Source of the DNA: Archangium sp.
GTDB lineage: Bacteria > Myxococcota > Myxococcia > Myxococcales > Myxococcaceae
NCBI RefSeq assembly: GCF_036277355.1
Contig: NZ_DASUNC010000017.1
Coordinates: 3,873 to 67,872 of the forward strand
Direction: 5' to 3'
DNA: 64,000 nucleotides
This document shows, in pieces, positions 33,759 through 46,435 of the stretch. The position numbers were made by a program, and so were the translations under genes. The notes beneath the pieces are model-generated. The model had not been told where the DNA came from. It searched no databases and worked only from the letters and a program-made list of their open reading frames with translations. The number at the start of each line of letters is the position of its first letter. Within the stretch, counting starts at the first letter, position 1.

Positions 33759-35264
33759 TCAAAGGCCTATCACCGACACCGGCGTGCTGCGGTTGGTGGT
33801 CGTCCCATCCCCCAGCTGGCCGTAGGCATTGTGGCCGCAGGTCTTGAGGGTGCCGTCCCCCGCCATCGCCAGGAGGTGGCCGGCCACCTCGATGAGCGCG
33901 ATGCCCGTGAGGCCCGGCACCAGGTAGGGGGCCAGCCGGTTGGTGGTCGTCCCGTCACACACCTGACCAAAGGCGTTGTAGCCCCAGGTCCGCACGGTGC
34001 CATCGCTCTTCAGTGCCGCCGAGTGATTGAACGCCGCGATGCGGGTGATGCCGCTGAGGCCCGGCACCGTCACCGGCGTCAACCGGTGGGTGGTGGTTCC
34101 GTCTCCGATGGCACCGTAGCCGTTGTAGCCCCAGGCCCGCACGGTGCCGTCACTCATCACCGCCATCGAGTGGTCGCTCCCCGCGGTGGCCTGGGTGACC
34201 CCCACGAGGCCCGGGACCGTCACCGGCGTCAGGCGGTTGGTGGTGGTTCCATCCCCGATCTGGCCGAAGTTGTTGGCGCCCCAGGTCCGCACGGTGCCGT
34301 CCGTCTTCAGCGCCACCGCGTGGTAGAAGCCCCCGGAGAGGGTGCTCACCCCGGTGAGGCCCGACACCTTCACCGGCGTCAGGCGGTTGGTGGTGGTTCC
34401 GTCCCCCAACTGGCCCGAGCTGTTCAGGCCCCAGGCCCACACGGTGCCGTCGTTCTGCAACGCCAGGGAGAAATAGAGGCCCGCGGAGATGGCGGTGATG
34501 CCGGAGAGGCCCGGCACCCTCACGGGCGTCAGACGGTTGGTGGTGGTGCCGTCCCCCAGCTGGCCCGAGCCGTTCAAGCCCCAGGTCCACACGGTGCCGT
34601 CCGTCTTCAGCGCCATCGAGTGCCCACCATTGGCCGAGAGCGCCATGACGCCGCTCAGGCCCGACACCGACACCGGCGTCGAGCGATGGGTGGTGGTGCC
34701 ATCTCCCACCGCGCCGTTGGTGTTGTAACCCCAGCCCTTGACGGTGCCGTCGCTCTTGAGCGCCAGGGAGTGCGAGCCGCCTCCGGCGACGGCTCGACAG
34801 GTCTGCGTCACCGATTGGGTGAGGACCTTCGACGTGGCGTAGCAGGTGGTGCGGTTGCCCGCGCTGTCGATGACCATGGGCCAGGCCTTCACCTGGAAGG
34901 TCTGCGTCCCACAGCCCATCTCCCCGCTGAAGTACCAGGTGCCCGAGCTCCCCACCCGCTCCTCCACGGCCTGCAGCACCCCTCCCAGCGTGTACTCCAG
35001 CCGCACCGCGTTGGCCCCGGTGGACACCCCGAAGGAGCCGCTCCCCGCCACCACGAACTCGTAGGAGCTGATCCCGGAGATCGTCAGGGTGGAGACGCTC
35101 AGCCCCGCGCACAGCTCCGACTCCCGGGTGCCCAGGGGCTCCTCCGGGAGCGCCCCCATCTCCTCTGGATTGCCACAGGCCACCACCAGCCCCACACACA
35201 ACAAGAACCATGAGCGGAAACGGATGGCCGGTCGCGACACGGGGACTCCTCTTCGAAAATCCAT
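33759..35264 (-). CDS. RCC1-repeat (beta-propeller) lipoprotein
   Basis: Lipobox LLCVGLVVAC|GN. Seven or more repeats of GWG.N..GQLGDGTTTNRLTPV.V.GL. ATG at 35264; the track's 35498 extension was rejected. Confidence 0.75.
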   Translation of the reverse strand: MDFRRGVPVSRPAIRFRSWFLLCVGLVVACGNPEEMGALPEEPLGTRESELCAGLSVSTLTISGISSYEFVVAGSGSFGVSTGANAVRLEYTLGGVLQAVEERVGSSGTWYFSGEMGCGTQTFQVKAWPMVIDSAGNRTTCYATSKVLTQSVTQTCRAVAGGGSHSLALKSDGTVKGWGYNTNGAVGDGTTTHRSTPVSVSGLSGVMALSANGGHSMALKTDGTVWTWGLNGSGQLGDGTTTNRLTPVRVPGLSGITAISAGLYFSLALQNDGTVWAWGLNSSGQLGDGTTTNRLTPVKVSGLTGVSTLSGGFYHAVALKTDGTVRTWGANNFGQIGDGTTTNRLTPVTVPGLVGVTQATAGSDHSMAVMSDGTVRAWGYNGYGAIGDGTTTHRLTPVTVPGLSGITRIAAFNHSAALKSDGTVRTWGYNAFGQVCDGTTTNRLAPYLVPGLTGIALIEVAGHLLAMAGDGTLKTCGHNAYGQLGDGTTTNRSTPVSVIGL

Positions 35265-35395
35265 GCACGGAGGGCGGAAAACAACACCCACAGTGTATTC
35301 CTGATTTAAAAAGAGAACAAGTTGCTCCGGGAGATGCGGCACAGGCGGAGTTGCTCCCCGTTGGGGCACCGGCGTTCTGCTGACGCCTTGCATCG

Positions 35396-36040
35396 GTGCT
35401 CGCCCTCGCCGAGCATCGGTTCGTGCCTCCACGCCCCTCCGAATCGAGCGCGGACACGGGTTCTCCACCGCCTCGCGTCCTGGCAGACGTCTTCGCACGC
35501 TCGCGCGTCCATGATGGGGCGCTCGTGCTTGGCGCCGCGCTGTTCACCGCGTTGCTCGCGCAGGTGGCCATCGCGGTGCCGGGCTCCCCGGTGCCCATCA
35601 CGGGCCAGACGCTCGCGGTCGTCCTCACGGCCGCCGCGCTCGGTCCCATGCGAGGCATGGCCGGACAGCTCGCCTACGTCCTGCTCGGGGCGGTGGGACT
35701 GCCATTCTATTCCAAGGGAGCCAGCGGCTGGGCACAGGTGCTCGGGCCGACCGGCGGCTACCTGGTGGGCTTCATCCCAGCCGCTTTCCTCATGGGCCTC
35801 GCGGCGCGGCGCGGCTTGGACAGGGTGGCGTGGAAGGCCGTCCCACTCTTCCTCGCGGGCCAGCTCGTCATCCTGGCCATCGGCGTGCCTTGGCTCTGCG
35901 TGGCGGCCCCGCTCGACCTCGCCACGGCCCTGCACAAGGGCTTTTTGCCCTTCCTCCCCGGTGGGTTGCTCAAGGCAACCCTTGCCGGCCTGTGGATGCC
36001 TCTCGCCTGGGGGCTCATACGACGAAGTCGCTCCAAGTGA
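35396..36040 (+). CDS. bioY: BioY-family biotin transporter (ECF S-component)
   Basis: LGPMRGMAGQLAYVLLGAVGLPFYSKGASG...LGPTGGYLVGFIPAAFLMG matches the BioY signature. The true start may be the internal GTG (VLADVF...), giving ~187 aa. Confidence 0.7.
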   Translation: MLALAEHRFVPPRPSESSADTGSPPPRVLADVFARSRVHDGALVLGAALFTALLAQVAIAVPGSPVPITGQTLAVVLTAAALGPMRGMAGQLAYVLLGAVGLPFYSKGASGWAQVLGPTGGYLVGFIPAAFLMGLAARRGLDRVAWKAVPLFLAGQLVILAIGVPWLCVAAPLDLATALHKGFLPFLPGGLLKATLAGLWMPLAWGLIRRSRSK

Positions 36041-36104: not shown

Positions 36105-38405
36105 TCAGTCTCCAAGCACCGTCGCGACGGCCCGGTACTCCGGCCGCAGGATCCGCTCGGCCTCCGTGCCGGCCACGACCACCGGGAGCATCGCGCCCTC
36201 CAGCCCCGCCTCGGCCGAGAGCTTCACCGCGATGGGCGCCATCACCTTCGCCTCGATGAGCCGCTTCAAGGGCCGGGCGCCCAGCTTCGGGTCGTACCCG
36301 TGACGGGCCAGCCAGGCCCGCGCGTCCGGCTCCACCACCAGCCGCAGTCTGCGCCGCAACAGCCCCGCCCGGGAGGCCGCCTTCTCCAGCTCCAGGTCGA
36401 CGATCCGCAGCACATCCGCCTCCGACAGCCGGCGGAACGGAATGACGTGATCGATGCGGTTGAACAGCTCCGGCCGGAAGGTCTGCCGGATGGCGCGCAT
36501 GAAGTCCTCCGAGCCGCGCTCGGCCCCGAAGCCCGTGGGCTCCGACTGCTCGACGCCGAGGTTGCTCGTCATGCACACCACCGTCATCCGGAAGTCCACC
36601 AGCCTCCCGAGGCTGTCCGTCAGCCTCCCCTCCCCCAGGATGCCGAGCAGCAGATCGAACACCTCGGGGTGCGCCTTCTCGATCTCATCGAAGAGCACGA
36701 GCGACATCGGCTGTTGCCGCACCCGCTCGGCGAGGCTGGTGATTCCCGGGCCCACCTCCATCAACCGCTGGGCCGAGCCGGGCTGCATGTACTCGGACAT
36801 GTCGAGCCGGATCATCCGGTCCTCGTTGCCGAAGAGCGTGCGCGCGAGCTGCTTGGACAGCTCCGTCTTCCCCACGCCCGTGGGCCCGGCGAAGAGCAGC
36901 GTGCCCACCGGCTTCTCCGGATCGTTGAGCCCCGCCTTGAAGCGCGCCAGCACGCCCGCCGCCAGCTCGCAGGCGCGATCCTGCCCGATGACCCCCTGCC
37001 GCAACTGTCCCGCCAGCGAGGCCTGCTCTGCGGGCACCTCGTCACTGATGAGCTGGAGCGGCAGCCCCGTGTAGCGCGCGTAGGCCTCGGAGACATCGCG
37101 CGGATAGAGCGTCCGGGCCTTGCCCGGCTCGCCCTGCTGCTCCAGCCAGTCGAGGAAGCGGAAGGCCTTGCCCGGAAACAGGCTGTCGCGCTGGAACGTC
37201 TCCAGGTGCCCGACGAGCTGTCTCAACCCCAGGGCATGGATGCTCACCCGGCTGCGCTTCGCCGCCTGGTAGCGCAGCATCAGCTCCGGCACCTGCGAGG
37301 CCGGCGGAGGCTCGATGCGGATGATGCGGAAGGGCCGCAGCGACTCCGGGAAGCGCCGCTGGCAGCGCTCCAGCTCGGCCTCGGTGCACTCGGCGATCAG
37401 GGAGATCTCCCCGCTCATCGCCGCGGGCAGCAGCAGATCTCCAATGGACGAGCCGTCCGGCTGGGGCGCGAGGATCGACGTGAGCCGGTCCACGTAGAGG
37501 TAGTCGTTCTCGTTCGAGAGCGCGTCGACGATCTTCAGGCAGCGCTCCTGCCACATGCCCAGGTACACCATGCCGGCGACGATGCGCTCGGCGCTGGTGC
37601 GCCAGATCCTCGGCAGGCTCACCTTCTTGTCCTCACGCCGCTGCTCGGCGATCAGCCGCGCGAGCTTCAGCACCTGGCTCGTCTTGCCGGAGCCCGGGCC
37701 CCCCACGAGCAGCAGGGACTGCGGTGGCTGGCGCTGCGCGTGGGCGAGCCAGGAGCGCATCGACTCGGCGTCGTACACCAGTGCCGGCTGCCTGCCTCCC
37801 AGGGCGCGCGAGGTCAGCTCCTCGCTGATCTGCTCGAGGACTTCAGGAGGCCGCTCCTCGCCCGGGCCGCGCCGGTTGTCCCGCAGCAGCCAGCCGAGGT
37901 CCCAGCTGCTCACGTACTCCGCGCCCTCGTGGCGGAAGTCGTACAGCCCCTTGGGCTTCTCCCCGAGCAGCACGGTGGTGAGCGCGTTCTGCAACACCTC
38001 GCGCGCGATGGAGAGCTCCTCGAGCACGAACGACCAGCCGAAGCGCGGCACCCGCACGCGCCAGGCACCGCTCTCCAGCTTCCCGTAGACGTACGTCAGC
38101 TTGAGCGGGATCAGCGCCTTGGCGATCACCGGCCGCTTCTTGTGCACGGTCTGCGGGTGGATCTCCACGGTGATGGTCCGCGCCTCCAGGCTCTCCTCCC
38201 AGAGGAACCGACCGAGCCCGGCTGGGTTCTCGAGCATCATCAACCGGATGCGCGTCTCGAGCAGCGCGTAGATCTCCGCCTCGCTGTTGCCGTAGGCCGA
38301 GGGCGGAGGATCATCGAAGAAGCTGTCCCAGACCGGCAGGAGCTGCCCGGTGAGCCGGCCATCGTGGTGGGTGGTGAAGTAGACGCGAAGGCTCTTGTCG
38401 CTCAT
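36105..38405 (-). CDS. ClpA/ClpV-like double-AAA+ ATPase, paralog 3 (unrecognised ~190-aa N-domain; no C-terminal extension)
   Basis: D1 Walker A LLLVGGPGSGKTS. D2 LLFAGPTGVGKTELSKQLA, Walker B LVLFDEIEKAHPEVFDLLL, sensor MTSNLG, FRPELFNRID. No ClpB middle domain (Walker A1 to A2 is ~280 aa). The ATG (MSDKSLRVY) overlaps the upstream stop as ATGA. Confidence 0.8.
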   Translation of the reverse strand: MSDKSLRVYFTTHHDGRLTGQLLPVWDSFFDDPPPSAYGNSEAEIYALLETRIRLMMLENPAGLGRFLWEESLEARTITVEIHPQTVHKKRPVIAKALIPLKLTYVYGKLESGAWRVRVPRFGWSFVLEELSIAREVLQNALTTVLLGEKPKGLYDFRHEGAEYVSSWDLGWLLRDNRRGPGEERPPEVLEQISEELTSRALGGRQPALVYDAESMRSWLAHAQRQPPQSLLLVGGPGSGKTSQVLKLARLIAEQRREDKKVSLPRIWRTSAERIVAGMVYLGMWQERCLKIVDALSNENDYLYVDRLTSILAPQPDGSSIGDLLLPAAMSGEISLIAECTEAELERCQRRFPESLRPFRIIRIEPPPASQVPELMLRYQAAKRSRVSIHALGLRQLVGHLETFQRDSLFPGKAFRFLDWLEQQGEPGKARTLYPRDVSEAYARYTGLPLQLISDEVPAEQASLAGQLRQGVIGQDRACELAAGVLARFKAGLNDPEKPVGTLLFAGPTGVGKTELSKQLARTLFGNEDRMIRLDMSEYMQPGSAQRLMEVGPGITSLAERVRQQPMSLVLFDEIEKAHPEVFDLLLGILGEGRLTDSLGRLVDFRMTVVCMTSNLGVEQSEPTGFGAERGSEDFMRAIRQTFRPELFNRIDHVIPFRRLSEADVLRIVDLELEKAASRAGLLRRRLRLVVEPDARAWLARHGYDPKLGARPLKRLIEAKVMAPIAVKLSAEAGLEGAMLPVVVAGTEAERILRPEYRAVATVLGD

Positions 38406-41400
38406 GGGGTCACCCGCTCGCTCATCCGCAGCCGCCACAGGGCCGGCAGGGCCTCGGCGGGATTCCTCACCCGATGGCTGCCGCTGTGGGTCAGCAGGTA
38501 GTCATCCAGCTCCAGCACCGACACCGCTCCCGGACGTGCGGGCGGCTCGAAGCGGTAGGCGCGCACGACGGGAGCCGCCGCCTCCGGATCCTCCGGGAGC
38601 GGGCTCACGCCCTCCTGGCGTGCCTTGTGGAAGGCCTGGAGCTTCACGGCATGCAGCGCGAGCAGCTCCGCGGGCGATGGCGCATTCGCCTCGTGAACGC
38701 GGACCTTGACGATCTCCGGGAGCCGGCCCGAGGACTGCCACACGTGCAGCCCGGCCTCGCCCTCGAAGAAGGGCCGCACGCCCGGGCCCACCAGCTTGAT
38801 CGCGGCATGCACGGGCTCCTGCATGGACAGGTGCAGGAACTCCCGGAGCTGCCGGGGCCCACCGGACACCAGGGCCCCACCGGGCAGGTGCGCGGCGAAG
38901 GACTCGATCTCCCCACGCGAGTGCGCATAGGCCGAGCAGAGCCACCGGGCGAGCAGCGACCCGGAGGACGCGCCCTGACGCCACTGGCCGAGCGGGAGCA
39001 GCTCCAACATGACCACGTGCTGATCCGGGCTGGAAATCCCCCGGAGGATGCGTTGCAGGAAGTAGACCTCCGACAGCGCATCGAGCATCTGCTCGCGGGA
39101 GACGGCCTTCACCGGCTCGAACGCGCGCCGGGCGAAGAGCCGGATGCGTGTCCCCTGGGACCAGCGATCGGCGCCAATCCGCTCCACGCCGAAACGCTCG
39201 GCCTCGATCATCTCCCGCTCCGTCTCCTCGGGAGCGCGGGCGAGAGACTCGAGTTGCGCCGCGAAGGCCTCCAGGTACATCCGCATCGCATCGAGCGTGA
39301 AGAGCGACTCGGCGTGATCGTGCTCGCCCGCCCGCAGACGCTCCAGGTGGAAGCGGACCTGCTCGGACAGGGCACCGAGCGCCTCGCTCTCGCGCAGCTC
39401 CTGCACCACCTCACGCAGCTCGAGCATCTTCTCGCGCAGCCGTGCGATGGGGAGCGACAGGAGTGGCTCCAGCGCGAAGCCCTGGGCCAGCGGCTCCCGG
39501 GGAATGAGCGCATCGGCCTGCGCCTCGAAGCGGCCCTCCCGGGTGTAGAGCTGGAACAGCCGCATGAGCGCCTGGGGTCCCCGGATGATGGCATCGGAGA
39601 GGACCTGCCCGACCTTCTCCTCCAGGTAGCGCTTCAGCGGCCGCGCGCCCAGGTGGGGATCGAAGGCCTCCTCGACGATGCGCCGCTTCACCGCCTCGTC
39701 GGCGGCCACGAAGATGTTGCGGGACACGAGCCCGTGCCGCGACAACAGTCGCGCCAGCTCCTTCTCCACCACCTTCTCGCCCACGTCCCGCGAGAGCGGC
39801 GAGAAGTGCACGATGCGATCGATGCGGTTGAAGAGCTCGGGCGGGAAGAACTCGCGCACGGCCCGGTCCGCATCCAGCTCCAGGGCGCGCGCGTCCGGCG
39901 CACCGAGCCCCACCGCCGGCTTGCGCCGCGCCCCGAGGTTGCTCGTCATCACGATGACGGTATGGGTGAAATCCGCCGTCTCGCCCGAGGCATCCGTCAA
40001 CCGGCCCTCGTCGAACGTCTGCAGCAGCAGGTTGAGCAGCGAGGGATGTGCCTTCTCGATCTCATCGAGCAGCACGAGCGAGAAGGGCTGCTCGCGGATG
40101 AGGCGCGTCAACCGGCCCTCGGGCTGCCAGGCGTCGCCCGTGAGCCGCGCGACGGCATCCGGCGTCTGGAACTCGCCCATGTCGAGCCGCACCAGCCGCG
40201 ACGCATCGCCATACAGGTAGCCGGCCAGCGCGCGGGCGAGCTCCGTCTTTCCCGTGCCCGTGGGGCCGGTGAACAGATAGACGCCGTAGGGCCGCCGGGG
40301 ATCCGTGAGTCCGGCATGGATGCGCGCGACGAGATCGCACGCCACGCGCACCGCCTCCGGCTGTCCCATCACCTTGCGCGACAGGGCCTCGTGGACCTCC
40401 TCGGGCACCAGCCGCTCCTGGGGGCGCAGGAGGAAGTCCGGCAGGCCCGTCCTGCGCGACAGGTGCGCGAAGAGCTCGCCGACGCCGAGCTCCCGGCCCG
40501 GGGCTCCCTGGTCCGTGGCCAGCTCGCGCAGCAGATCGAGCGCCTTGCCCGGAAGCGCGGACCCGGAGAAGAGCGTCCCCGCCTGCTCCAGCAGCACCGG
40601 GAAGAGCGGAGGGGACCAGGCGATGTGGTGCTTGGACTCCAGCTCGCGCGCCTCGTGCAGCAGCATGCGCAGTGTCTCGTCGGTGCGGGTGGAGCGCACG
40701 TGCACCTGGGTGAAGAGCGCGGCGAAGGACGGGGCGTCCGTCTCCAGCCGCTGGAGCTGCTCGGGCGTCACCGTGCCGGCGAGCGTGAGCTCTCCACGTG
40801 CCAGGGCTCCCTGGAAGAAGAGCGCGAGATTGGTGTCACTCTCCCGCGAGCGGCCGATGCGGCCGAAGGCATGCAGGTCCTCGATGAAGAGGATGCGCCG
40901 CCCTCCCCTCGTGTCCTCGAGCACCTTGAGGCAGCGCTGCTCCCAGTCGCCCACGTAGCTCATGCCGGCGATGATCCGCTTGCCGGCGATCGACCAGACC
41001 TCGGTCACCTTGTCCAGGTTGCGGTGGGTCTGGAAACCATCGGCCTCGAGCTGCTCGGCCACGAAGCGCTTGAGCAGGGTCCGCTTGCCGCAGCCGGGAG
41101 GACCCACGAGCAGCACCGGCGTGCGCCGCTCGCCTCCGAGCAGGAGCTGGAGTTGCTCCCGGTAGGGGCCGCGCGGCATGCCGGTATCGAGCGTGCCCTC
41201 CGCGGCCTGGAGGGTGAGGTTCGTCCCCAGCTTGTGCAGCACCTGGGTGCCGCCACCGGACTTCTTCTGCTTCTTCTTGCCGCCGGCCCGTTCCCGCCGG
41301 TCCTCGGCCTCCAGGTCGTCCCAGGGCCCCTTCTTCTTGCCGAGCTCGTCGAGCAGCGACTTCGGCTGGGCCATGAACGCGAGCGCCTTGAGGGTGTCCT

Positions 41401-41875
41401 TGCGGTTGGAGCGCAGGTCATCGTGCTCGTACGGCTCCAGCTGGGCCCAGGCACGGGTGAAGAAGACCTTCGCCTGCTCCTCGAGACTGGCGCCGGTATC
41501 GACCGGGAACCACTCGTGCTGGCGCGCGGGGTGGTAGGCGATGGTCATGAGCTCGTCGCGCGTGCGCCAGCGCGGCTCGAGGATGAGCGGGAAGAGACCG
41601 GACAGCCGCGGCGTCTCGGTTCCGGTGCGCACGCGCTTGAAATCCAGCTCGAGCTGTACCCGCTCCAGGCGGATGCCTCGGGGGAGCTGGAAGTACGACA
41701 GCTCCCGGACGGGCAGCTCGCCGATGATGCTCCGGAGATCCTCCACGAGCTTCTGCTGGAGCTTGACGGTGCTCCGTCCCTCTCGGCTGCGGGTATGGGG
41801 GCCGAGCGCGAGCGTGGTCCACCGGTAGCCACTGGAGGCATCGCGGCTCTGGTACACGCCAAGAGTGAGGTTCAT
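38402..41875 (-). CDS. ClpA/ClpV-like double-AAA+ ATPase, paralog 2 (unrecognised ~250-aa N-domain with Lys-rich linker; ~380-aa C-terminal extension)
   Basis: D1 VLLVGPPGCGKRT and ILFIEDLH. D2 YLFTGPTGTGKTELARALA, LVLLDEIEKAHPSLLNLLL, FFPPELFNRID. ATG (MNLTLGV) in an ATGA overlap with the upstream stop. Confidence 0.8.
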   Translation of the reverse strand: MNLTLGVYQSRDASSGYRWTTLALGPHTRSREGRSTVKLQQKLVEDLRSIIGELPVRELSYFQLPRGIRLERVQLELDFKRVRTGTETPRLSGLFPLILEPRWRTRDELMTIAYHPARQHEWFPVDTGASLEEQAKVFFTRAWAQLEPYEHDDLRSNRKDTLKALAFMAQPKSLLDELGKKKGPWDDLEAEDRRERAGGKKKQKKSGGGTQVLHKLGTNLTLQAAEGTLDTGMPRGPYREQLQLLLGGERRTPVLLVGPPGCGKRTLLKRFVAEQLEADGFQTHRNLDKVTEVWSIAGKRIIAGMSYVGDWEQRCLKVLEDTRGGRRILFIEDLHAFGRIGRSRESDTNLALFFQGALARGELTLAGTVTPEQLQRLETDAPSFAALFTQVHVRSTRTDETLRMLLHEARELESKHHIAWSPPLFPVLLEQAGTLFSGSALPGKALDLLRELATDQGAPGRELGVGELFAHLSRRTGLPDFLLRPQERLVPEEVHEALSRKVMGQPEAVRVACDLVARIHAGLTDPRRPYGVYLFTGPTGTGKTELARALAGYLYGDASRLVRLDMGEFQTPDAVARLTGDAWQPEGRLTRLIREQPFSLVLLDEIEKAHPSLLNLLLQTFDEGRLTDASGETADFTHTVIVMTSNLGARRKPAVGLGAPDARALELDADRAVREFFPPELFNRIDRIVHFSPLSRDVGEKVVEKELARLLSRHGLVSRNIFVAADEAVKRRIVEEAFDPHLGARPLKRYLEEKVGQVLSDAIIRGPQALMRLFQLYTREGRFEAQADALIPREPLAQGFALEPLLSLPIARLREKMLELREVVQELRESEALGALSEQVRFHLERLRAGEHDHAESLFTLDAMRMYLEAFAAQLESLARAPEETEREMIEAERFGVERIGADRWSQGTRIRLFARRAFEPVKAVSREQMLDALSEVYFLQRILRGISSPDQHVVMLELLPLGQWRQGASSGSLLARWLCSAYAHSRGEIESFAAHLPGGALVSGGPRQLREFLHLSMQEPVHAAIKLVGPGVRPFFEGEAGLHVWQSSGRLPEIVKVRVHEANAPSPAELLALHAVKLQAFHKARQEGVSPLPEDPEAAAPVVRAYRFEPPARPGAVSVLELDDYLLTHSGSHRVRNPAEALPALWRLRMSERVTP

Positions 41876-44800
41876 CGCGAGGCCCCCCGGATCACGTCGA
41901 GCGCGAAGGAGAATCCACTCTCGGCATCGAAGTTCCCGGAGCTTTCGAGCAGCAGGATGTGTTCGAGCAGGATCCGTTCGAGCGCCTGGAAGTGCTCCCA
42001 GGAATCCAGCTGAAGCTTGCGTGCGCCATCGCACAGCAGGAGCTCGCCGCCGGGAACGTACTCACGGATGGCTGGCATCAACCGCAGCTCCCGGAGATCC
42101 TTGCCGGCCCGTTGTGCCGGAGGGGCGATGGCGGGCAGCTCGAGCTCCTTCTGGAACAGCTGGGTGGACATGGCAACGGGCCTGACCTCGACCTGGACCA
42201 GCTCGTCCTTCTCGGTGGGGGGATAACGATGAACCCCGGCCTCGAGCGCCAGGAAGGCCCCCGCGTTCGTGCCGTTGACCAGGAGCAGTACCTCCCGGAA
42301 GGCCCGCGAGGGCGCGGCCAGCTCCTTCCGAAGCTGCTCCGCACCCAGCAGCTTGTCATCCCACTTGCGCTTGCGCTCGCTGCTCTTGTGGGTGACCGAG
42401 ACGCGGCCCTCGACCGTCCAGCCGCGCCGGGGCGCATCCTCGATCAGCGGCAGGATCCAGCGCTCGAGGCCGCGTGTCTCCCCCGCCTCCTGGAGGATGA
42501 GCGTGATCTGATCCCTCCGGGGCTGGAGCGCGAGCAGCACGGACGGCATCAGCTGGCGGATGGCCTTCATCTGCGCGTGGGCCTCGTCCACGAAGGGGGC
42601 GGCATCCTGCTGCTCGAAGAGCGCCATCAGCGCCAGCTCCTCGGCGGCCAGGAGCGATGCGCGCAACCGCCGGGCCTCGCTCCAGAGCGCCTCGAGCCGG
42701 CTGTGCTCGTACTGGAGTTGTCCCAGCGAGGACGCCTCGGGCCCTCGCATCTTCTTCTGATCTCCCTGGGCGAGCTGGGCCACCAGGAAGTGGATCCGCT
42801 CCCCCACGTTCTCCACGGCATCCATCCGGAAGAGCCTGTCGATGACCCGCCGCTGCTCCTGCAGGTCGCGCACGAGCTCGAGCTGGTTGCGCGCCGTCTT
42901 CGGGCTGCCCTTGGTCAGCTCCACGGCAATGCCCCCGGGACGGGAGGCGATCACCACACGGCCGCCCTGGGCCTCGGGCCCGGCCTCGGAGAGCATGCGG
43001 GCGATGGGGACGACGAGCTGCTGGTCCAGGTGCCTGCGCATGGCCCGGGCGCCATAGGCCTCCTGGTAGCCGGAGGTGGCGAGCGCGGTGGTGATCTCCG
43101 GAGGCACCTCGAGCGAGACCCCGCGCTGCATCAACCCGCGCCGCTGCCGCAGCTTGTCCACGCCGAGCCGGGCCACCTCCGCCGCCTGCTCGGGGGTGAG
43201 CGGGTGGAAGGGAATGAGCTGGTCGATGCGGTTGACGAACTCGGGGCGGAAGTGACGGTGCACCTCGCGCAGGTAGTACGAGGCGTCATCCACCGAGGTA
43301 GCGCCGATGCCCAGCGGGGAGCGGCGGTGCGCCACGCCGAGGTTGCTCGTCATGATGATGATGGCGTTGTGGAACCACGCCGTCTGCCCCCGGGCATCGG
43401 TGAGCCGCCCTTCCCCGCACACCTGCAGGAGCAGATCGAAGACGGCCGGGTGGGCCTTCTCGATCTCGTCGAGCAGGAGCACGCAGAAGGGCTGCTGGCG
43501 GACGCGGCGCGTGAGCAGCCCCTCGCCCTGGGTGTTGCCCCGGATGAGCCGTTCGGCGGCCCAGCCGTCCATGAACTCGCTCATGTCGAAGCGGAACATC
43601 CGCTCCGGCGAGCCGAAGAGGAACGTGGCGAGCAGCCGCGCGAGCTCGGTCTTCCCGACGCCGGTGGGGCCCACGAAGAGGAAGGTGGCCAGCGGCTTGC
43701 CCTGGGGCTGGAGGCCCGCCTTCACCATGCACAGCGTCTCCACGACGCGGCGCACCGCCGTCTCCTGGCCCACGAGCTGGCGGCGGAAGTGCGCCTCGAC
43801 CTCCCCGGCGAGCAGCGCGCGGTCCTCGCGCAACAGGAACTCGGGGACGCCCGTCTTGAGGCTGAAGAGCGAGTACACGCGCTCGCGGGTGAGCAGGGGC
43901 ACCTCGCCCGTGCCCGTGCGCTCCTGTTGCAGTCCCGCGCGCATCTCCTCGTACAACCGGATCGCCTTGCCGGGCAGCGCGCGGCTCGGCAGGTAGCGCT
44001 CGGCCAGGTCCACGAGCGGATCCACCGCGTCGTCGGCCAGCGAGTACCGCGAGGGCTCGGCCTTGCGTTGCCAGACCGTCCGGCTCCGGAGCGCCTCACG
44101 GGTCTGCCGCGTCCCCAGGGGCTCCAGGCGCACGCGGCCGAGCACCGCGAAGAGGCCCGGGTGCCGGTTCTCGAGCAGATCCAACGACTCGGGGGTGAGC
44201 TCTCCGAGGAACCGCACCCGGCCCTCCTCCAGGAAGGGCTTCATCGCGCCGGGGATGTCCACGTGCTCCGAGGACTGCTGCGCGAGCAGCTCCCCGAGGT
44301 TCTCGAAGTACAGGACGGCGTCGAGCTCCTGTGCCGCACGCATGACCCGCAGCACGCGCTCCTGCCACTGGCCGAAGCCGGACATGCCGGCGATCAACCG
44401 CGAGCCGCTCGTGGCGTACACGCGCCGCTCGCGGCCGGCCTTGCGCTCGGCGCGGAGCCACGCGAGGAGCAGCTCCGTCTTGCCCACGAGCTCCGGGCCC
44501 ACGAGCAGCACGCCCTGCCGCTTCTCGCCGCCGAGCAGGCCGGACAGCAGCGCGAGCTCGGTGTCCCGGGCGATGAGGGGCGGTCCGTGCCGGGCCTCGT
44601 CGCGATCATGCAGCACCGTGGAGACGGAGAGGAGCACCTGGTGCGCCTGCTCCCGCTTGAGCTTCTCCTCCAGCTTCTTCTTCGCCTGCCGGGCCTTGTC
44701 GCTCGCGTCCTGACGCCGGAGCGCGAGCTGGACGGTCTCGAGCGTCACGAACTTCGGAGGCAGCAGCCGCAGGTACTCATGGGCGGCCGGCTCGCGCGCG

Positions 44801-45234
44801 GCGAGCAACCGCTCCACGTCCGCGCGCACCGTCTCGCGCACGTCCTGGTTCCTGCCCACGTAGACCGTGTGATCGATCGCCGGCACGAAGACCCACGTCT
44901 CCTCCGCGAGCGGCACGACGATGGTGGCCAGCTCGACGGTGACGGGCTTGACGAGCTTCTTGGGGAGATCGGCGCGGGGGGCGAGGATCTCCAGCATCTC
45001 GAGCCGCACCTGCTCGGGGAAGGAGAAGCGGGCCAGCTCCTCGGGCTCCACCCTGGACAGGTGCTCCTCGAGGAACAGGCGCTGCTCGCCCAGACAGGCC
45101 TCGAGCGTGGGCGCGTGGCTCGTCAGGGTGGGCGCGGCCACGGGGAACACCTGGTGGTCCCCGTTCCACAGCTGCTGGCAGACGAGCGGCGTGGAGAACT
45201 CGAGCGTCCCGGGGACGGCATTGGAAGAAGCCAT
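41872..45234 (-). CDS. ClpA/ClpV-like double-AAA+ ATPase, paralog 1 (unrecognised ~240-aa N-domain; ~350-aa C-terminal extension)
   Basis: D1 VLLVGPELVGKTELL. D2 FLFVGPTGVGKTELARLLA, VLLLDEIEKAHPAVFDLLL, MTSNLG, FRPEFVNRID. It is the first gene of the three-gene unit. Confidence 0.8.
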   Translation of the reverse strand: MASSNAVPGTLEFSTPLVCQQLWNGDHQVFPVAAPTLTSHAPTLEACLGEQRLFLEEHLSRVEPEELARFSFPEQVRLEMLEILAPRADLPKKLVKPVTVELATIVVPLAEETWVFVPAIDHTVYVGRNQDVRETVRADVERLLAAREPAAHEYLRLLPPKFVTLETVQLALRRQDASDKARQAKKKLEEKLKREQAHQVLLSVSTVLHDRDEARHGPPLIARDTELALLSGLLGGEKRQGVLLVGPELVGKTELLLAWLRAERKAGRERRVYATSGSRLIAGMSGFGQWQERVLRVMRAAQELDAVLYFENLGELLAQQSSEHVDIPGAMKPFLEEGRVRFLGELTPESLDLLENRHPGLFAVLGRVRLEPLGTRQTREALRSRTVWQRKAEPSRYSLADDAVDPLVDLAERYLPSRALPGKAIRLYEEMRAGLQQERTGTGEVPLLTRERVYSLFSLKTGVPEFLLREDRALLAGEVEAHFRRQLVGQETAVRRVVETLCMVKAGLQPQGKPLATFLFVGPTGVGKTELARLLATFLFGSPERMFRFDMSEFMDGWAAERLIRGNTQGEGLLTRRVRQQPFCVLLLDEIEKAHPAVFDLLLQVCGEGRLTDARGQTAWFHNAIIIMTSNLGVAHRRSPLGIGATSVDDASYYLREVHRHFRPEFVNRIDQLIPFHPLTPEQAAEVARLGVDKLRQRRGLMQRGVSLEVPPEITTALATSGYQEAYGARAMRRHLDQQLVVPIARMLSEAGPEAQGGRVVIASRPGGIAVELTKGSPKTARNQLELVRDLQEQRRVIDRLFRMDAVENVGERIHFLVAQLAQGDQKKMRGPEASSLGQLQYEHSRLEALWSEARRLRASLLAAEELALMALFEQQDAAPFVDEAHAQMKAIRQLMPSVLLALQPRRDQITLILQEAGETRGLERWILPLIEDAPRRGWTVEGRVSVTHKSSERKRKWDDKLLGAEQLRKELAAPSRAFREVLLLVNGTNAGAFLALEAGVHRYPPTEKDELVQVEVRPVAMSTQLFQKELELPAIAPPAQRAGKDLRELRLMPAIREYVPGGELLLCDGARKLQLDSWEHFQALERILLEHILLLESSGNFDAESGFSFALDVIRGASR

Positions 45235-45289
45235 GGGCCCGCCATCCTATCCTGATGAGGTACGCTGGCGGCAGGAGGCATTCCCCACG

Positions 45290-46435
45290 ATGGCGCATGT
45301 GAATCCAAGCATCTTCCAGTCCGCGCTCGAGCGGCGGTTGCGCGACGAGCTCCTCGCGGGCGAGGACACCCAGCGGGCGCTGCGGCATGTGGACGCGGTG
45401 CCGGGCAGGTTCGGCGGCGTCGCGAGGCAGAGGCAGCTGCTCTCGAACGCCTTCAAGCTGACGCGCCCGGTGGCCCCGCGGGTCCTGGATGCGCTGGCCG
45501 CCTGCAAGGAGGTCCTGGGCCACGAGGGACCCGTGGATGTGTTCGTCAACCCGGAGCCCATGATCCGGGCCGCGGCGGTGCAGGCCCCGCCGGACACTCC
45601 CGCCATCGTTCTGTCCTCCCGGCTCCTGGAGGTGTTCCAGGAGGCCGAGCTGCGCTTCATCCTCGGGCACGAGCTCGGGCACCTCGCCTTCGAGCACTTC
45701 ACCCTGCCCCTGCCGGCCACGGCCCTGGCCTGGGACGGAGAGGATGGACGATTCGTCTCCCCCGCCACGGCGCTCGGGCTGTACCGGTGGAACCGGGCGG
45801 CCGAGGCCAGCGCCGACCGGGCGGGACTGCTGTGCTCCCGGGAGCTGGAGGCCTCCGCGGGCGTCCTGCTCGCACGGGTGAGCGGATGGACCGCAGGCTC
45901 GGTGAAGTCCGAGCTGCAGGCGGCGGCGCGCCATGTGGACGCGCTCCTGTCCGATCCATCGGCCCGTGAGCGGCCCAGTGAGGACGATGAGGTACTCGGC
46001 GGTTTCCGCGCCCATGCCTTCAGCCCATGGCGGGTGCGTGCCCTCGCGGCGTTCTCCAAGACGAGGACCTTCCTGAAGAGCGCGGGCCGCTATGCGAGCG
46101 AGGAGGGACTGTCGGACGAGGAGGCCGACACCCTGCTGGCGTGGGAGCTGCGGGAGCTGGATCCCTCCTACCTGGAGAAGTCCGAGCATCCCGAGCTGCT
46201 GAACCTGGCCCTGACGACGGGGAAGCTCCTGCCCGTGCTGGAGCAGCTGTACCAGGAGCGGGCGACCCTGTCCGAGCGGGCCCGGCTGGCGCAGCACTTC
46301 GCCTTGATGAAGGCCCCGGACGGCGTCGTGGACAACCTGGGTTACCTGGAGCTGAGGAAGGTGGCCGGAGCGCTGGCGGTGCCCACGTGGCTCGTGGACG
46401 AGGCCCTGCGCGGCGCCAGCAATCCCTTGGATTGA
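45290..46435 (+). CDS. Soluble M48-family zinc metallopeptidase-like protein
   Basis: HEXXH plus a downstream Glu: FILGHELGHLAFEH. ATG at 45290 with GGAGG 14 nt upstream (the track's 44921 start was rejected). No obvious TM. Transcribed divergently from the AAA+ triad, 55 bp away. Confidence 0.7.
   Translation: MAHVNPSIFQSALERRLRDELLAGEDTQRALRHVDAVPGRFGGVARQRQLLSNAFKLTRPVAPRVLDALAACKEVLGHEGPVDVFVNPEPMIRAAAVQAPPDTPAIVLSSRLLEVFQEAELRFILGHELGHLAFEHFTLPLPATALAWDGEDGRFVSPATALGLYRWNRAAEASADRAGLLCSRELEASAGVLLARVSGWTAGSVKSELQAAARHVDALLSDPSARERPSEDDEVLGGFRAHAFSPWRVRALAAFSKTRTFLKSAGRYASEEGLSDEEADTLLAWELRELDPSYLEKSEHPELLNLALTTGKLLPVLEQLYQERATLSERARLAQHFALMKAPDGVVDNLGYLELRKVAGALAVPTWLVDEALRGASNPLD

Follow-up and report, generated by a model that had tools for sequence, protein, structure and literature searches.

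Three Clp-type ATPase genes lie head to tail in Archangium

The window analyzed here is a 64,000-nucleotide stretch of an Archangium sp. genome (NCBI RefSeq assembly GCF_036277355.1, contig NZ_DASUNC010000017.1, positions 3,873 to 67,872 of the forward strand) with a G+C content of 70%. On its minus strand, three long open reading frames (ORFs), which we call genes 1, 2 and 3, follow one another head to tail and encode paralogous ATPases with two AAA+ modules each. All three frames are intact, with a G+C content at third codon positions (GC3) of 0.88-0.93. In each protein the first module (D1) is degenerate and the second (D2) is canonical, and the genes are joined by overlapping stop and start codons.

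41872-45234, minus strand: gene 1, 1120 amino acids; HicB-like N-terminal domain, degenerate D1, canonical D2, release-factor-like C-terminal domain
38402-41875, minus strand: gene 2, 1157 amino acids, starting MNLTLGV; architecture as in gene 1
36105-38405, minus strand: gene 3, 766 amino acids, starting MSDKSL; N-terminal domain, degenerate D1, canonical D2, no C-terminal extension
41872-41875, minus strand: ATGA overlap of the gene 2 ATG with the gene 1 TGA
38402-38405, minus strand: ATGA overlap of the gene 3 ATG with the gene 2 TGA

The gene 1 product is 100% identical to an Archangium sp. protein annotated as 'AAA family ATPase', and public databases name the trio proteins only 'AAA family ATPase' or 'ClpC'. 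All three contain the Pfam domains AAA_2 (E 1e-39 to 1e-43) and ClpB_D2-small, match ClpB, ClpA and ClpC chains of the PDB with E-values down to 1e-76 (phmmer), and share pairwise identities of 30-36% across D1 and D2. The NCBIfam ClpA model gives one continuous alignment over D1-D2 with no M-domain insertion. The ClpB middle domain is not found: the NCBIfam ClpB matches split into two stretches, and the linker between D1 and D2 is only ~25 residues long. A Pfam scan of the three proteins returned no match to the Clp_N repeat domain. The NCBIfam scores of the trio, ~300-330 bits (best 313-329), fall far under the equivalog cut-offs for ClpA, ClpB, ClpV, ClpK and ClpG (885-1900 bits). Judged by these profile matches, the trio comprises divergent ClpA/ClpC-type double-ring AAA+ paralogs that lack the ClpB middle domain and stand outside every named equivalog. 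An assignment to a defense system was considered and rejected, as the PADLOC defense models returned only generic AAA+ matches (DolB, PDC-M37B, mad8) to the D2 module and no defense system.

The D1 Walker B motif is degenerate in all three paralogs

The most conspicuous departure from known Clp ATPases lies in the D1 Walker B strand, for which the ClpB reference motif is hhhhDELH.

44293-44316, minus strand: gene 1 D1 Walker B, VLYFENLG; E-N replaces D-E
40871-40894, minus strand: gene 2 D1 Walker B, ILFIEDLH; E-D replaces D-E
37479-37502, minus strand: gene 3 D1 Walker B, YLYVDRLT; D-R replaces D-E

An initial annotation of the window had proposed these three strings and their positions. Minus-strand translation confirms them, and all three are in frame inside the long ORFs. 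In phmmer comparisons with the PDB, gene 1 'avlyfenlgell' and gene 2 'rilfiedlhafg' both align with high posterior probability to ClpB 'vilfidelhtvvg', as does gene 3 'ylyvdrl' to 'ilfidel'. The three HMMER alignments agree on the placement, and no alternative DE/ED pair is present near the aligned strand; the placement is thus upheld by alignment to solved ClpB and ClpA.

Orthologs were gathered by a genome scan with a profile of the gene 1 N-terminal region, in which 80 loci were taken in and 139 further confirmed matches left out. The loci come from Archangiaceae, Polyangiales (Sorangium, Byssovorax, Labilithrix) and Nannocystaceae, and they provided 78, 58 and 44 orthologs of genes 1, 2 and 3, or 79, 59 and 45 alignment rows including the window's own protein. 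In gene 1 the pair reads Glu (40) or Asp (37) followed by Asn (51), Asp (21) or Ser (5), and the catalytic position is never Glu (0/77; 2 of 79 rows are gapped). Gene 3 orthologs mostly have D-R, with Asp in 36 and then Gly, Ser or Ala at the first position, Arg in 35 and then Ala, Ser or Thr at the second, and no Glu at the catalytic position in any of the 45. The absence of the D1 catalytic Glu from genes 1 and 3, as first annotated, is therefore borne out and conserved in orthologs. Gene 2 is different in kind: the Glu position is occupied by Asp in 58/58 orthologs (1 of 59 rows is gapped), and the preceding, Mg-binding acidic position varies (Glu in 29, Asp in 16, Pro in 9, Val in 2, and also Gln or Thr).

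Because the same substitutions recur in orthologs across Myxococcota loci, the D1 Walker B degeneracy is not noise. The alignments indicate that it is old and maintained by selection, and is not the result of chance or sequencing error.

D1 keeps its Walker A Lys and pore loop but has lost its Arg fingers

The remaining active-site elements of D1 are located as follows.

44476-44499, minus strand: gene 1 D1 Walker A, GPELVGKT
41078-41104, minus strand: gene 2 D1 Walker A, GPPGCGKRT; Arg where the Mg-coordinating Ser/Thr would be
37677-37703, minus strand: gene 3 D1 Walker A, GGPGSGKTS; canonical
44143-44148, minus strand: gene 1 A363-V364, aligned with the ClpB D1 arginine-finger pair RR
40715-40720, minus strand: gene 2 A386-L387, aligned with the ClpB D1 arginine-finger pair
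37332-37337, minus strand: gene 3 R357-P358, aligned with the ClpB D1 arginine-finger pair; one Arg kept
44356-44391, minus strand: gene 1 D1 pore loop, AGMSGFGQWQER; pattern AGMxxxGxWxxR
40934-40969, minus strand: gene 2 D1 pore loop
37542-37577, minus strand: gene 3 D1 pore loop
44194-44205, minus strand: gene 1 sensor-1 strand, GELT, with Glu E345
40766-40777, minus strand: gene 2 sensor-1 strand, GTVT
37383-37394, minus strand: gene 3 sensor-1 strand, AECT, with Glu E339

The Walker A Lys is kept in 77/77 gene 1, 55/58 gene 2 and 45/45 gene 3 orthologs (gapped rows excluded). Only the Archangium/Cystobacter clade has the GKRT form of the gene 2 Walker A motif, in place of the GK[TS]T of other clades. 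Opposite the ClpB segment ERRFQ, which holds the finger residues R331/R332, the alignments place F-A-V-L-G (gene 1), A-A-L-F-T (gene 2) and L-R-P-F-R (gene 3). These positions are never conserved as Arg in gene 1 and gene 2 orthologs, and in gene 3 orthologs Arg is found at the first finger position in 22/45 and at the second in 7/45.

The pore-loop motif AGMxxxGxWxxR is common to all three paralogs and strongly conserved in their orthologs, with the gene 1 loop lacking the Tyr. At least 90% conservation is seen in 20-24% of D1 columns, compared to 39-41% for D2 and 4-15% for the end domains, which indicates that D1 is a constrained and not a decaying module. Two residues before the sensor-1 position, where canonical ClpB has Ala (GATT), a Glu is found in 77/79 gene 1, 45/45 gene 3 and 36/58 gene 2 sequences (GEC[TS] in the latter); Archangium-clade gene 2 has Thr, Ala or Ser there. 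In gene 3 this Glu is invariant even where the Walker B Asp is lost. The sensor-1 Thr/Ser of gene 2 is itself conserved in orthologs.

From the loss of the Walker B Glu and the Arg fingers, and from the retention of the Walker A Lys and the pore loop, D1 is likely to bind nucleotide without much hydrolysis. D1 is probably nucleotide-binding in all three proteins, and the alignments argue that the standard catalytic Glu and trans-acting Arg are gone from D1 of all three, not only of the two singled out in the initial annotation. That annotation took the acidic pair of gene 2 as retained. An E-D pair is indeed present, but the site is not intact: the pair is inverted, only its Asp is invariant, the Walker A motif reads GKRT and there is no Arg finger. 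The idea that active and inactive D1 rings are mixed is accordingly weaker than that of a D1 tier that is non-canonical throughout, because the gene 2 Walker B, Walker A and Arg-finger positions also depart from canon.

D2 has canonical catalytic motifs and an unusual pore loop

43447-43479, minus strand: gene 1 D2 Walker B, LLLDEIEKAHP; canonical
40043-40075, minus strand: gene 2 D2 Walker B
36666-36698, minus strand: gene 3 D2 Walker B
43519-43551, minus strand: gene 1 D2 pore-1 loop, RLIRGNTQGEG; 5 residues shorter than ClpB GAPPGYVGYEEGG, no aromatic residue
40115-40147, minus strand: gene 2 D2 pore-1 loop; Trp present
36735-36767, minus strand: gene 3 D2 pore-1 loop; no aromatic residue
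43300-43314, minus strand: gene 1 D2 loop LGIGA, at the position of the ClpP-docking tripeptide (ClpA IGL, ClpC VGF)
39899-39916, minus strand: gene 2 D2 loop AVGLGA
36522-36539, minus strand: gene 3 D2 loop PTGFGA

The D2 Walker A motif, the Walker B DE pair, the sensor-1 Asn, the Arg of NRID and the GAR sensor-2 motif are essentially invariant in all three families. All three proteins had been described as carrying LDEIEKAHP; this is correct for genes 1 and 2 and the D-E pair is canonical throughout, but gene 3 reads FDEIEKAHP.

The D2 pore-1 loop is less conventional. In the trio it is 5-6 residues shorter than its ClpB counterpart and lacks GYVG. Among orthologs, the loop holds Trp, Tyr or Phe in gene 2, no aromatic residue in gene 1 and G-P-G-[IVT] in gene 3.

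The stretch between TSNLG and FRPEFxNRID contains a Gly-flanked x-G-[FILY] loop, which reads LGI, VGL and TGF here and AGF or VGF in distant orthologs. ClpA carries its ClpP-docking IGL at this D2 loop position; ClpC has VGF and ClpC1 has LGF in the docking loop. The ortholog consensus [AVLT]-G-[FILY] resembles the docking pattern [LIV]-G-[FL], with an alignment register that is ambiguous, and hints at a possible ClpP partner.

The end domains resemble HicB and release factors

44590-45234, minus strand: gene 1 N-terminal domain, residues 1-215; HicB-antitoxin-like fold
41875-42942, minus strand: gene 1 C-terminal domain, residues 765-1120; fold like that of class I release factors, no GGQ
38405-39553, minus strand: gene 2 C-terminal domain, residues 775-1157; homologous to the gene 1 C domain

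The predicted fold of the N domain matches the HicB N-terminal domain, and the N domains of the three paralogs are only weakly similar to one another. No HicA was found in Pfam scans of ten neighboring ORFs or in clustering of the loci, which covered ORFs of at least 120 amino acids, so that a HicA-sized protein would escape; no dedicated search was made.

Genes 1 and 2 have C-terminal extensions of 350-380 amino acids, and gene 3 has none. The two C domains are homologous (hhalign probability 94%, E 1.5e-7). A model of the gene 1 C domain (residues 765-1120) has a predicted local distance difference test score (pLDDT) of 88 and a predicted template modeling score (pTM) of 0.86, and its best 35 Foldseek matches are all RF1, RF2 or mtRF1, with E-values down to 1.4e-8. 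Sequence comparison points the same way. The family profile matches RF1 (1rq0, E 0.0044) over FREVLLxVxGxxAGxxLALEAGLHR; Pfam PCRF scores 19.6 bits against a gathering cut-off of 24, with sub-threshold matches in 10/18 members; and an E-x-G-x-H motif, as in the E-x-G-x-H-R signature of RF1/RF2, is invariant in the C domains. The GGQ motif is missing from 75/76 gene 1 and 57/58 gene 2 C domains, and the two occurrences are at non-homologous positions. Release factor (RF) domain 3 comprises ~110 residues; in the gene 1 C-domain model ~33 residues occupy its place. On reading the ortholog C-domain sequences we found no conserved PxT/SPF tripeptide. The gene 1 model, together with the homology of the two domains, presents the gene 1 and gene 2 C domains as a class I RF1/RF2 fold (domains 1 and 2/4) without the GGQ hydrolase domain.

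This domain is rare. An exhaustive hidden Markov model (HMM) search of 1.84 billion representatives recovered it in only 253 proteins. The full-length members share the length of gene 1 and the C-terminal position of the domain, and the shorter ones are probably metagenomic fragments. In 2/18 scanned gene 1 C-terminal regions, both from distant orthologs, a segment resembling the L7/L12 C-terminal domain (PF00542, E 1.8e-5) is added after the RF-like domain; a precomputed PF00542 match also exists for protein P0079. We regard this segment as a second hint of a link to translation.

The trio is conserved as a unit across Myxococcota

The best 120 homologs of gene 1 are all gene 1 orthologs from Myxococcota. 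Gene order could be read in 61 informative loci, defined by at least 6.5 kb of sequence downstream of gene 1. The order 1-2-3 is found in 40/61, spanning Archangiaceae, Polyangiales, Nannocystaceae and Labilithrix. Genes 1 and 2 occur without an adjacent gene 3 in 15/61, mostly in Sorangium, and gene 1 stands alone in 6/61. For one of the latter, a metagenome-assembled genome, an adjacent gene 2-gene 3 pair lies ~16 kb off on the same contig (L022 with L081). In Sorangium (L037-L047, L050, L067), genes 1 and 2 are often 0.7-2.7 kb apart, gene 3 is not adjacent, and the best 120 gene 3 homologs include none from Sorangium. Four-nucleotide ATGA or GTGA overlaps are present at both junctions in most loci and in all lineages.

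Clustering of all ORFs of the 80 loci revealed no other neighbor conserved beyond Archangiaceae; only the three ATPases co-occur phylum-wide. An M48-like peptidase and a ceramidase-like gene were considered as conserved partners and rejected, as they are confined to Archangiaceae. We conclude that the trio is a self-contained, translationally coupled module whose products are made together, self-contained because no other neighbor is conserved beyond that family.

A 1741-amino-acid match (P0286) that resembled a fusion of genes 1 and 2, and as such would have argued for their interaction, proved to be a frameshifted, low-complexity read-through and was set aside. In two Polyangiales loci an extra Clp-like ORF, ~35% identical to gene 1, lies just upstream of gene 1 (L029, 5031-7946, plus strand; L032, 4499-7930, plus strand); this ORF could represent a fourth paralog or simply a standard Clp ATPase.

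The genes flanking the trio in the window are listed for completeness.

44921-46435, plus strand: M48-family peptidase-like ORF, divergent, upstream of gene 1
33759-35498, minus strand, and 35396-36040, plus strand: downstream of gene 3, a BioY-family transporter gene and a gene for a protein with six RCC1 repeats

The M48-like ORF adjoins the trio only within Archangiaceae. As listed it runs into the 5' end of gene 1, and the real start codon probably lies downstream of the listed one. The BioY-family transporter and RCC1-repeat genes are not kept beside the trio in the other genomes compared.

A model for the trio and its alternatives

We propose that this operon of three double-ring Clp-type paralogs encodes a machine in which D1 would form a nucleotide-binding, hydrolysis-poor ring for assembly and substrate contact, and D2, whose motifs are all in place, would act as the motor. 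The products of genes 1, 2 and 3 would co-assemble into mixed hexamers in the manner of Pex1/Pex6, and targeting would probably be provided by the end domains, namely the HicB-like N domains and the GGQ-less RF-like C domains of genes 1 and 2. We consider this model as a whole moderately probable. Co-assembly appears most likely because gene order and stop/start overlaps persist phylum-wide and each paralog has its own fixed substitutions; the conserved linkage is the main, if indirect, argument that supports it. The initial annotation had raised hetero-oligomers as the typical setting for such D1 differences, and the conserved gene order and overlapping codons favor that part of its interpretation.

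Several observations weigh against this model. Operon linkage would also fit three co-regulated homohexamers. Sorangium loci have no adjacent gene 3, so a fixed 1:1:1 complex cannot be universal. The GYVG aromatic is missing from the D2 pore-1 loop of genes 1 and 3, which is unexpected for a threading motor driven by D2. As for D1, its catalytic residue could have been relocated to the sensor-1-strand Glu, and D1 might then still hydrolyze ATP, although a structural role is equally possible; and the invariant Asp at the catalytic position of gene 2 might support slow hydrolysis. The statement that D1 cannot hydrolyze ATP thus stays a prediction. For genes 1 and 3, to which the initial annotation had applied it, binding without hydrolysis is a reasonable prediction, given that the Walker A Lys is kept, but one that the conserved sensor-1-strand Glu could overturn by substituting for the lost residue.

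The alternatives differ in which of these elements they take at face value. If the three proteins formed separate homohexamers with distinct substrates, the operon would reflect co-regulation only, and D1 degeneracy would be a division of labor like that in ClpA. ClpA-type enzymes do run largely on D2, gene 3 is missing beside genes 1-2 in 15 loci, and the weak similarity among the N domains would suit different clients. However, gene order and 4-nucleotide overlaps have been kept over deep divergence, and all three genes are retained together even where the operon is split. The pore loops are also paralog-specific and complementary, with a D2 aromatic only in gene 2 and the D1 Tyr absent in gene 1. 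We think separate homohexamers rather unlikely. That the whole pattern is an artefact of a misplaced Walker B strand, pseudogenes or sequencing errors is extremely improbable: the placement of the motif comes from three independent HMMER alignments, the frames are unbroken (GC3 0.88-0.93), and the substitutions are kept in dozens of genomes with D1 under clear constraint.

The other two alternatives concern the chemistry of D1. The D1 of gene 2 could work while those of genes 1 and 3 are dead, so that a mixed hexamer alternates active and inactive D1 sites. Gene 2 alone among the paralogs has a fixed acidic residue, Asp in 58/58 orthologs, at the catalytic position, its Walker A motif is the canonical GK[TS]T outside the Archangium clade, and its sensor-1 Thr/Ser is conserved; moreover, gene 3 keeps one finger Arg in ~29/45 orthologs and could complete a neighboring gene 2 site. 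Yet the residue is Asp and not Glu, the preceding Mg-binding acidic position is variable, the Walker A motif is GKRT in this genome and clade, and genes 1 and 2 contribute no Arg finger, and we regard an active gene 2 D1 as unlikely. It is more doubtful still that D1 is active in all three proteins with the sensor-1-strand Glu standing in for the Walker B Glu. The distribution of this residue (77/79, 45/45 and 36/58 for genes 1, 3 and 2, where ClpB has Ala) and its invariance in gene 3 despite loss of the Walker B Asp speak for such a relocation. But the Arg fingers are also missing, the Glu may equally well be structural, and no precedent for a relocated catalytic Glu is known to us among AAA+ proteins, though no search aimed at one was made.

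The model of a hydrolysis-poor D1 tier in a mixed hexamer can be extended toward a function, on more speculative ground. A mixed Clp-type unfoldase with a hydrolysis-dead D1 might be sent to the ribosome or the release-factor site by its RF-like domains, where it would extract stalled chains or stuck factors and possibly hand them over to ClpP via the IGF-like loops. The L7/L12 domain on some distant gene 1 orthologs fits such a link of the trio to translation, but we rate this extension, taken as a whole, as improbable.

Comparison with known double-ring ATPases

Hsp100/Clp unfoldases are textbook homohexamers in which both ATPase rings are active. ClpA and ClpC resemble the trio in having two AAA+ modules plus ClpB_D2-small, canonical D2 motifs and a Gly-hydrophobic loop that aligns, in an ambiguous register, with the ClpP-docking position, and D2 is the stronger motor in ClpA (PMC7568338). 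The trio differs from them in its scores (~300-330 bits compared to equivalog cut-offs of 993-1350), in a D1 without catalytic Glu and Arg fingers, in a HicB-like N domain instead of Clp_N, in a D2 pore-1 loop that is 5-6 residues shorter and lacks GYVG, in the RF-like tail on two paralogs, and in the presence of three linked paralogs instead of one gene.

A close parallel to the D1 pattern is found outside the Clp family. In Pex1/Pex6, the D1 ring has a Walker A Lys but neither a Walker B nor an Arg-finger motif; it serves assembly, and D2 is the active ring (PMC9265785). Like the trio, Pex1 and Pex6 are paralogous double-ring subunits with the same pattern of D1 loss and a canonical D2. They differ in that Pex1/Pex6 has aromatic pore loops in D2 and none in D1, whereas the trio has a conserved D1 loop and a non-canonical D2 loop; and hetero-assembly, proven for the two Pex paralogs, is what we infer for the three paralogs here. 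The clades are also distinct, as Pex1/Pex6 belongs to the classic, Cdc48-like AAA+ proteins and the trio to Clp/HCLR. NSF D2 and p97 D1 are likewise stacked rings that bind nucleotide chiefly for assembly and hydrolyze it little or not at all. Unlike the proposed trio complex, however, NSF and p97 are homohexamers of another clade, and the inactive ring differs between them.

For the C domain, the relevant comparison is with RF1/RF2 and also PrfH, which have the GGQ domain that the trio lacks; the trio domain is fused to an AAA+ motor and is rare (253 representatives). A double-ring AAA+ unfoldase works with a release-factor-fold protein in the case of Cdc48-Vms1, and a survey of release-factor evolution mentions AAA+ proteins only for Cdc48 (PMC6514570). 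The parallel with the trio is limited to a functional analogy: Vms1 is a separate, catalytically active protein of the archaeo-eukaryotic RF fold, whereas the trio has a bacterial-type RF fold that lacks the catalytic domain and is fused to the motor, and its link to the ribosome is hypothetical.

Full-text searching of the literature brought up no account of the trio family, of an Hsp100 protein whose D1 is degenerate, or of Clp ATPases that carry RF-like domains. Type II AAA+ proteins in which one ring is a dead scaffold are already known. New within Hsp100/Clp, as far as the literature found, is the combination of a linked paralog trio, a D1 that has neither the Walker B Glu nor an Arg finger, a shortened pore loop in D2, N domains resembling HicB and RF C domains that lack GGQ.

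Taken together, a phylum-wide trio of this kind would show that bacteria too evolved heteromers with a dead scaffold ring and an active motor ring, as known from Pex1/Pex6. If the ribosome-directed reading is true, the trio would be a bacterial, covalently fused counterpart of the Cdc48-Vms1 ribosome quality-control module. It offers a tractable system for the role of a Clp ring that binds but does not hydrolyze ATP, and it lets one ask whether the catalytic Glu can move to another site of the AAA+ fold, and what a release-factor fold contributes when it has no catalytic domain and is attached to an unfoldase.

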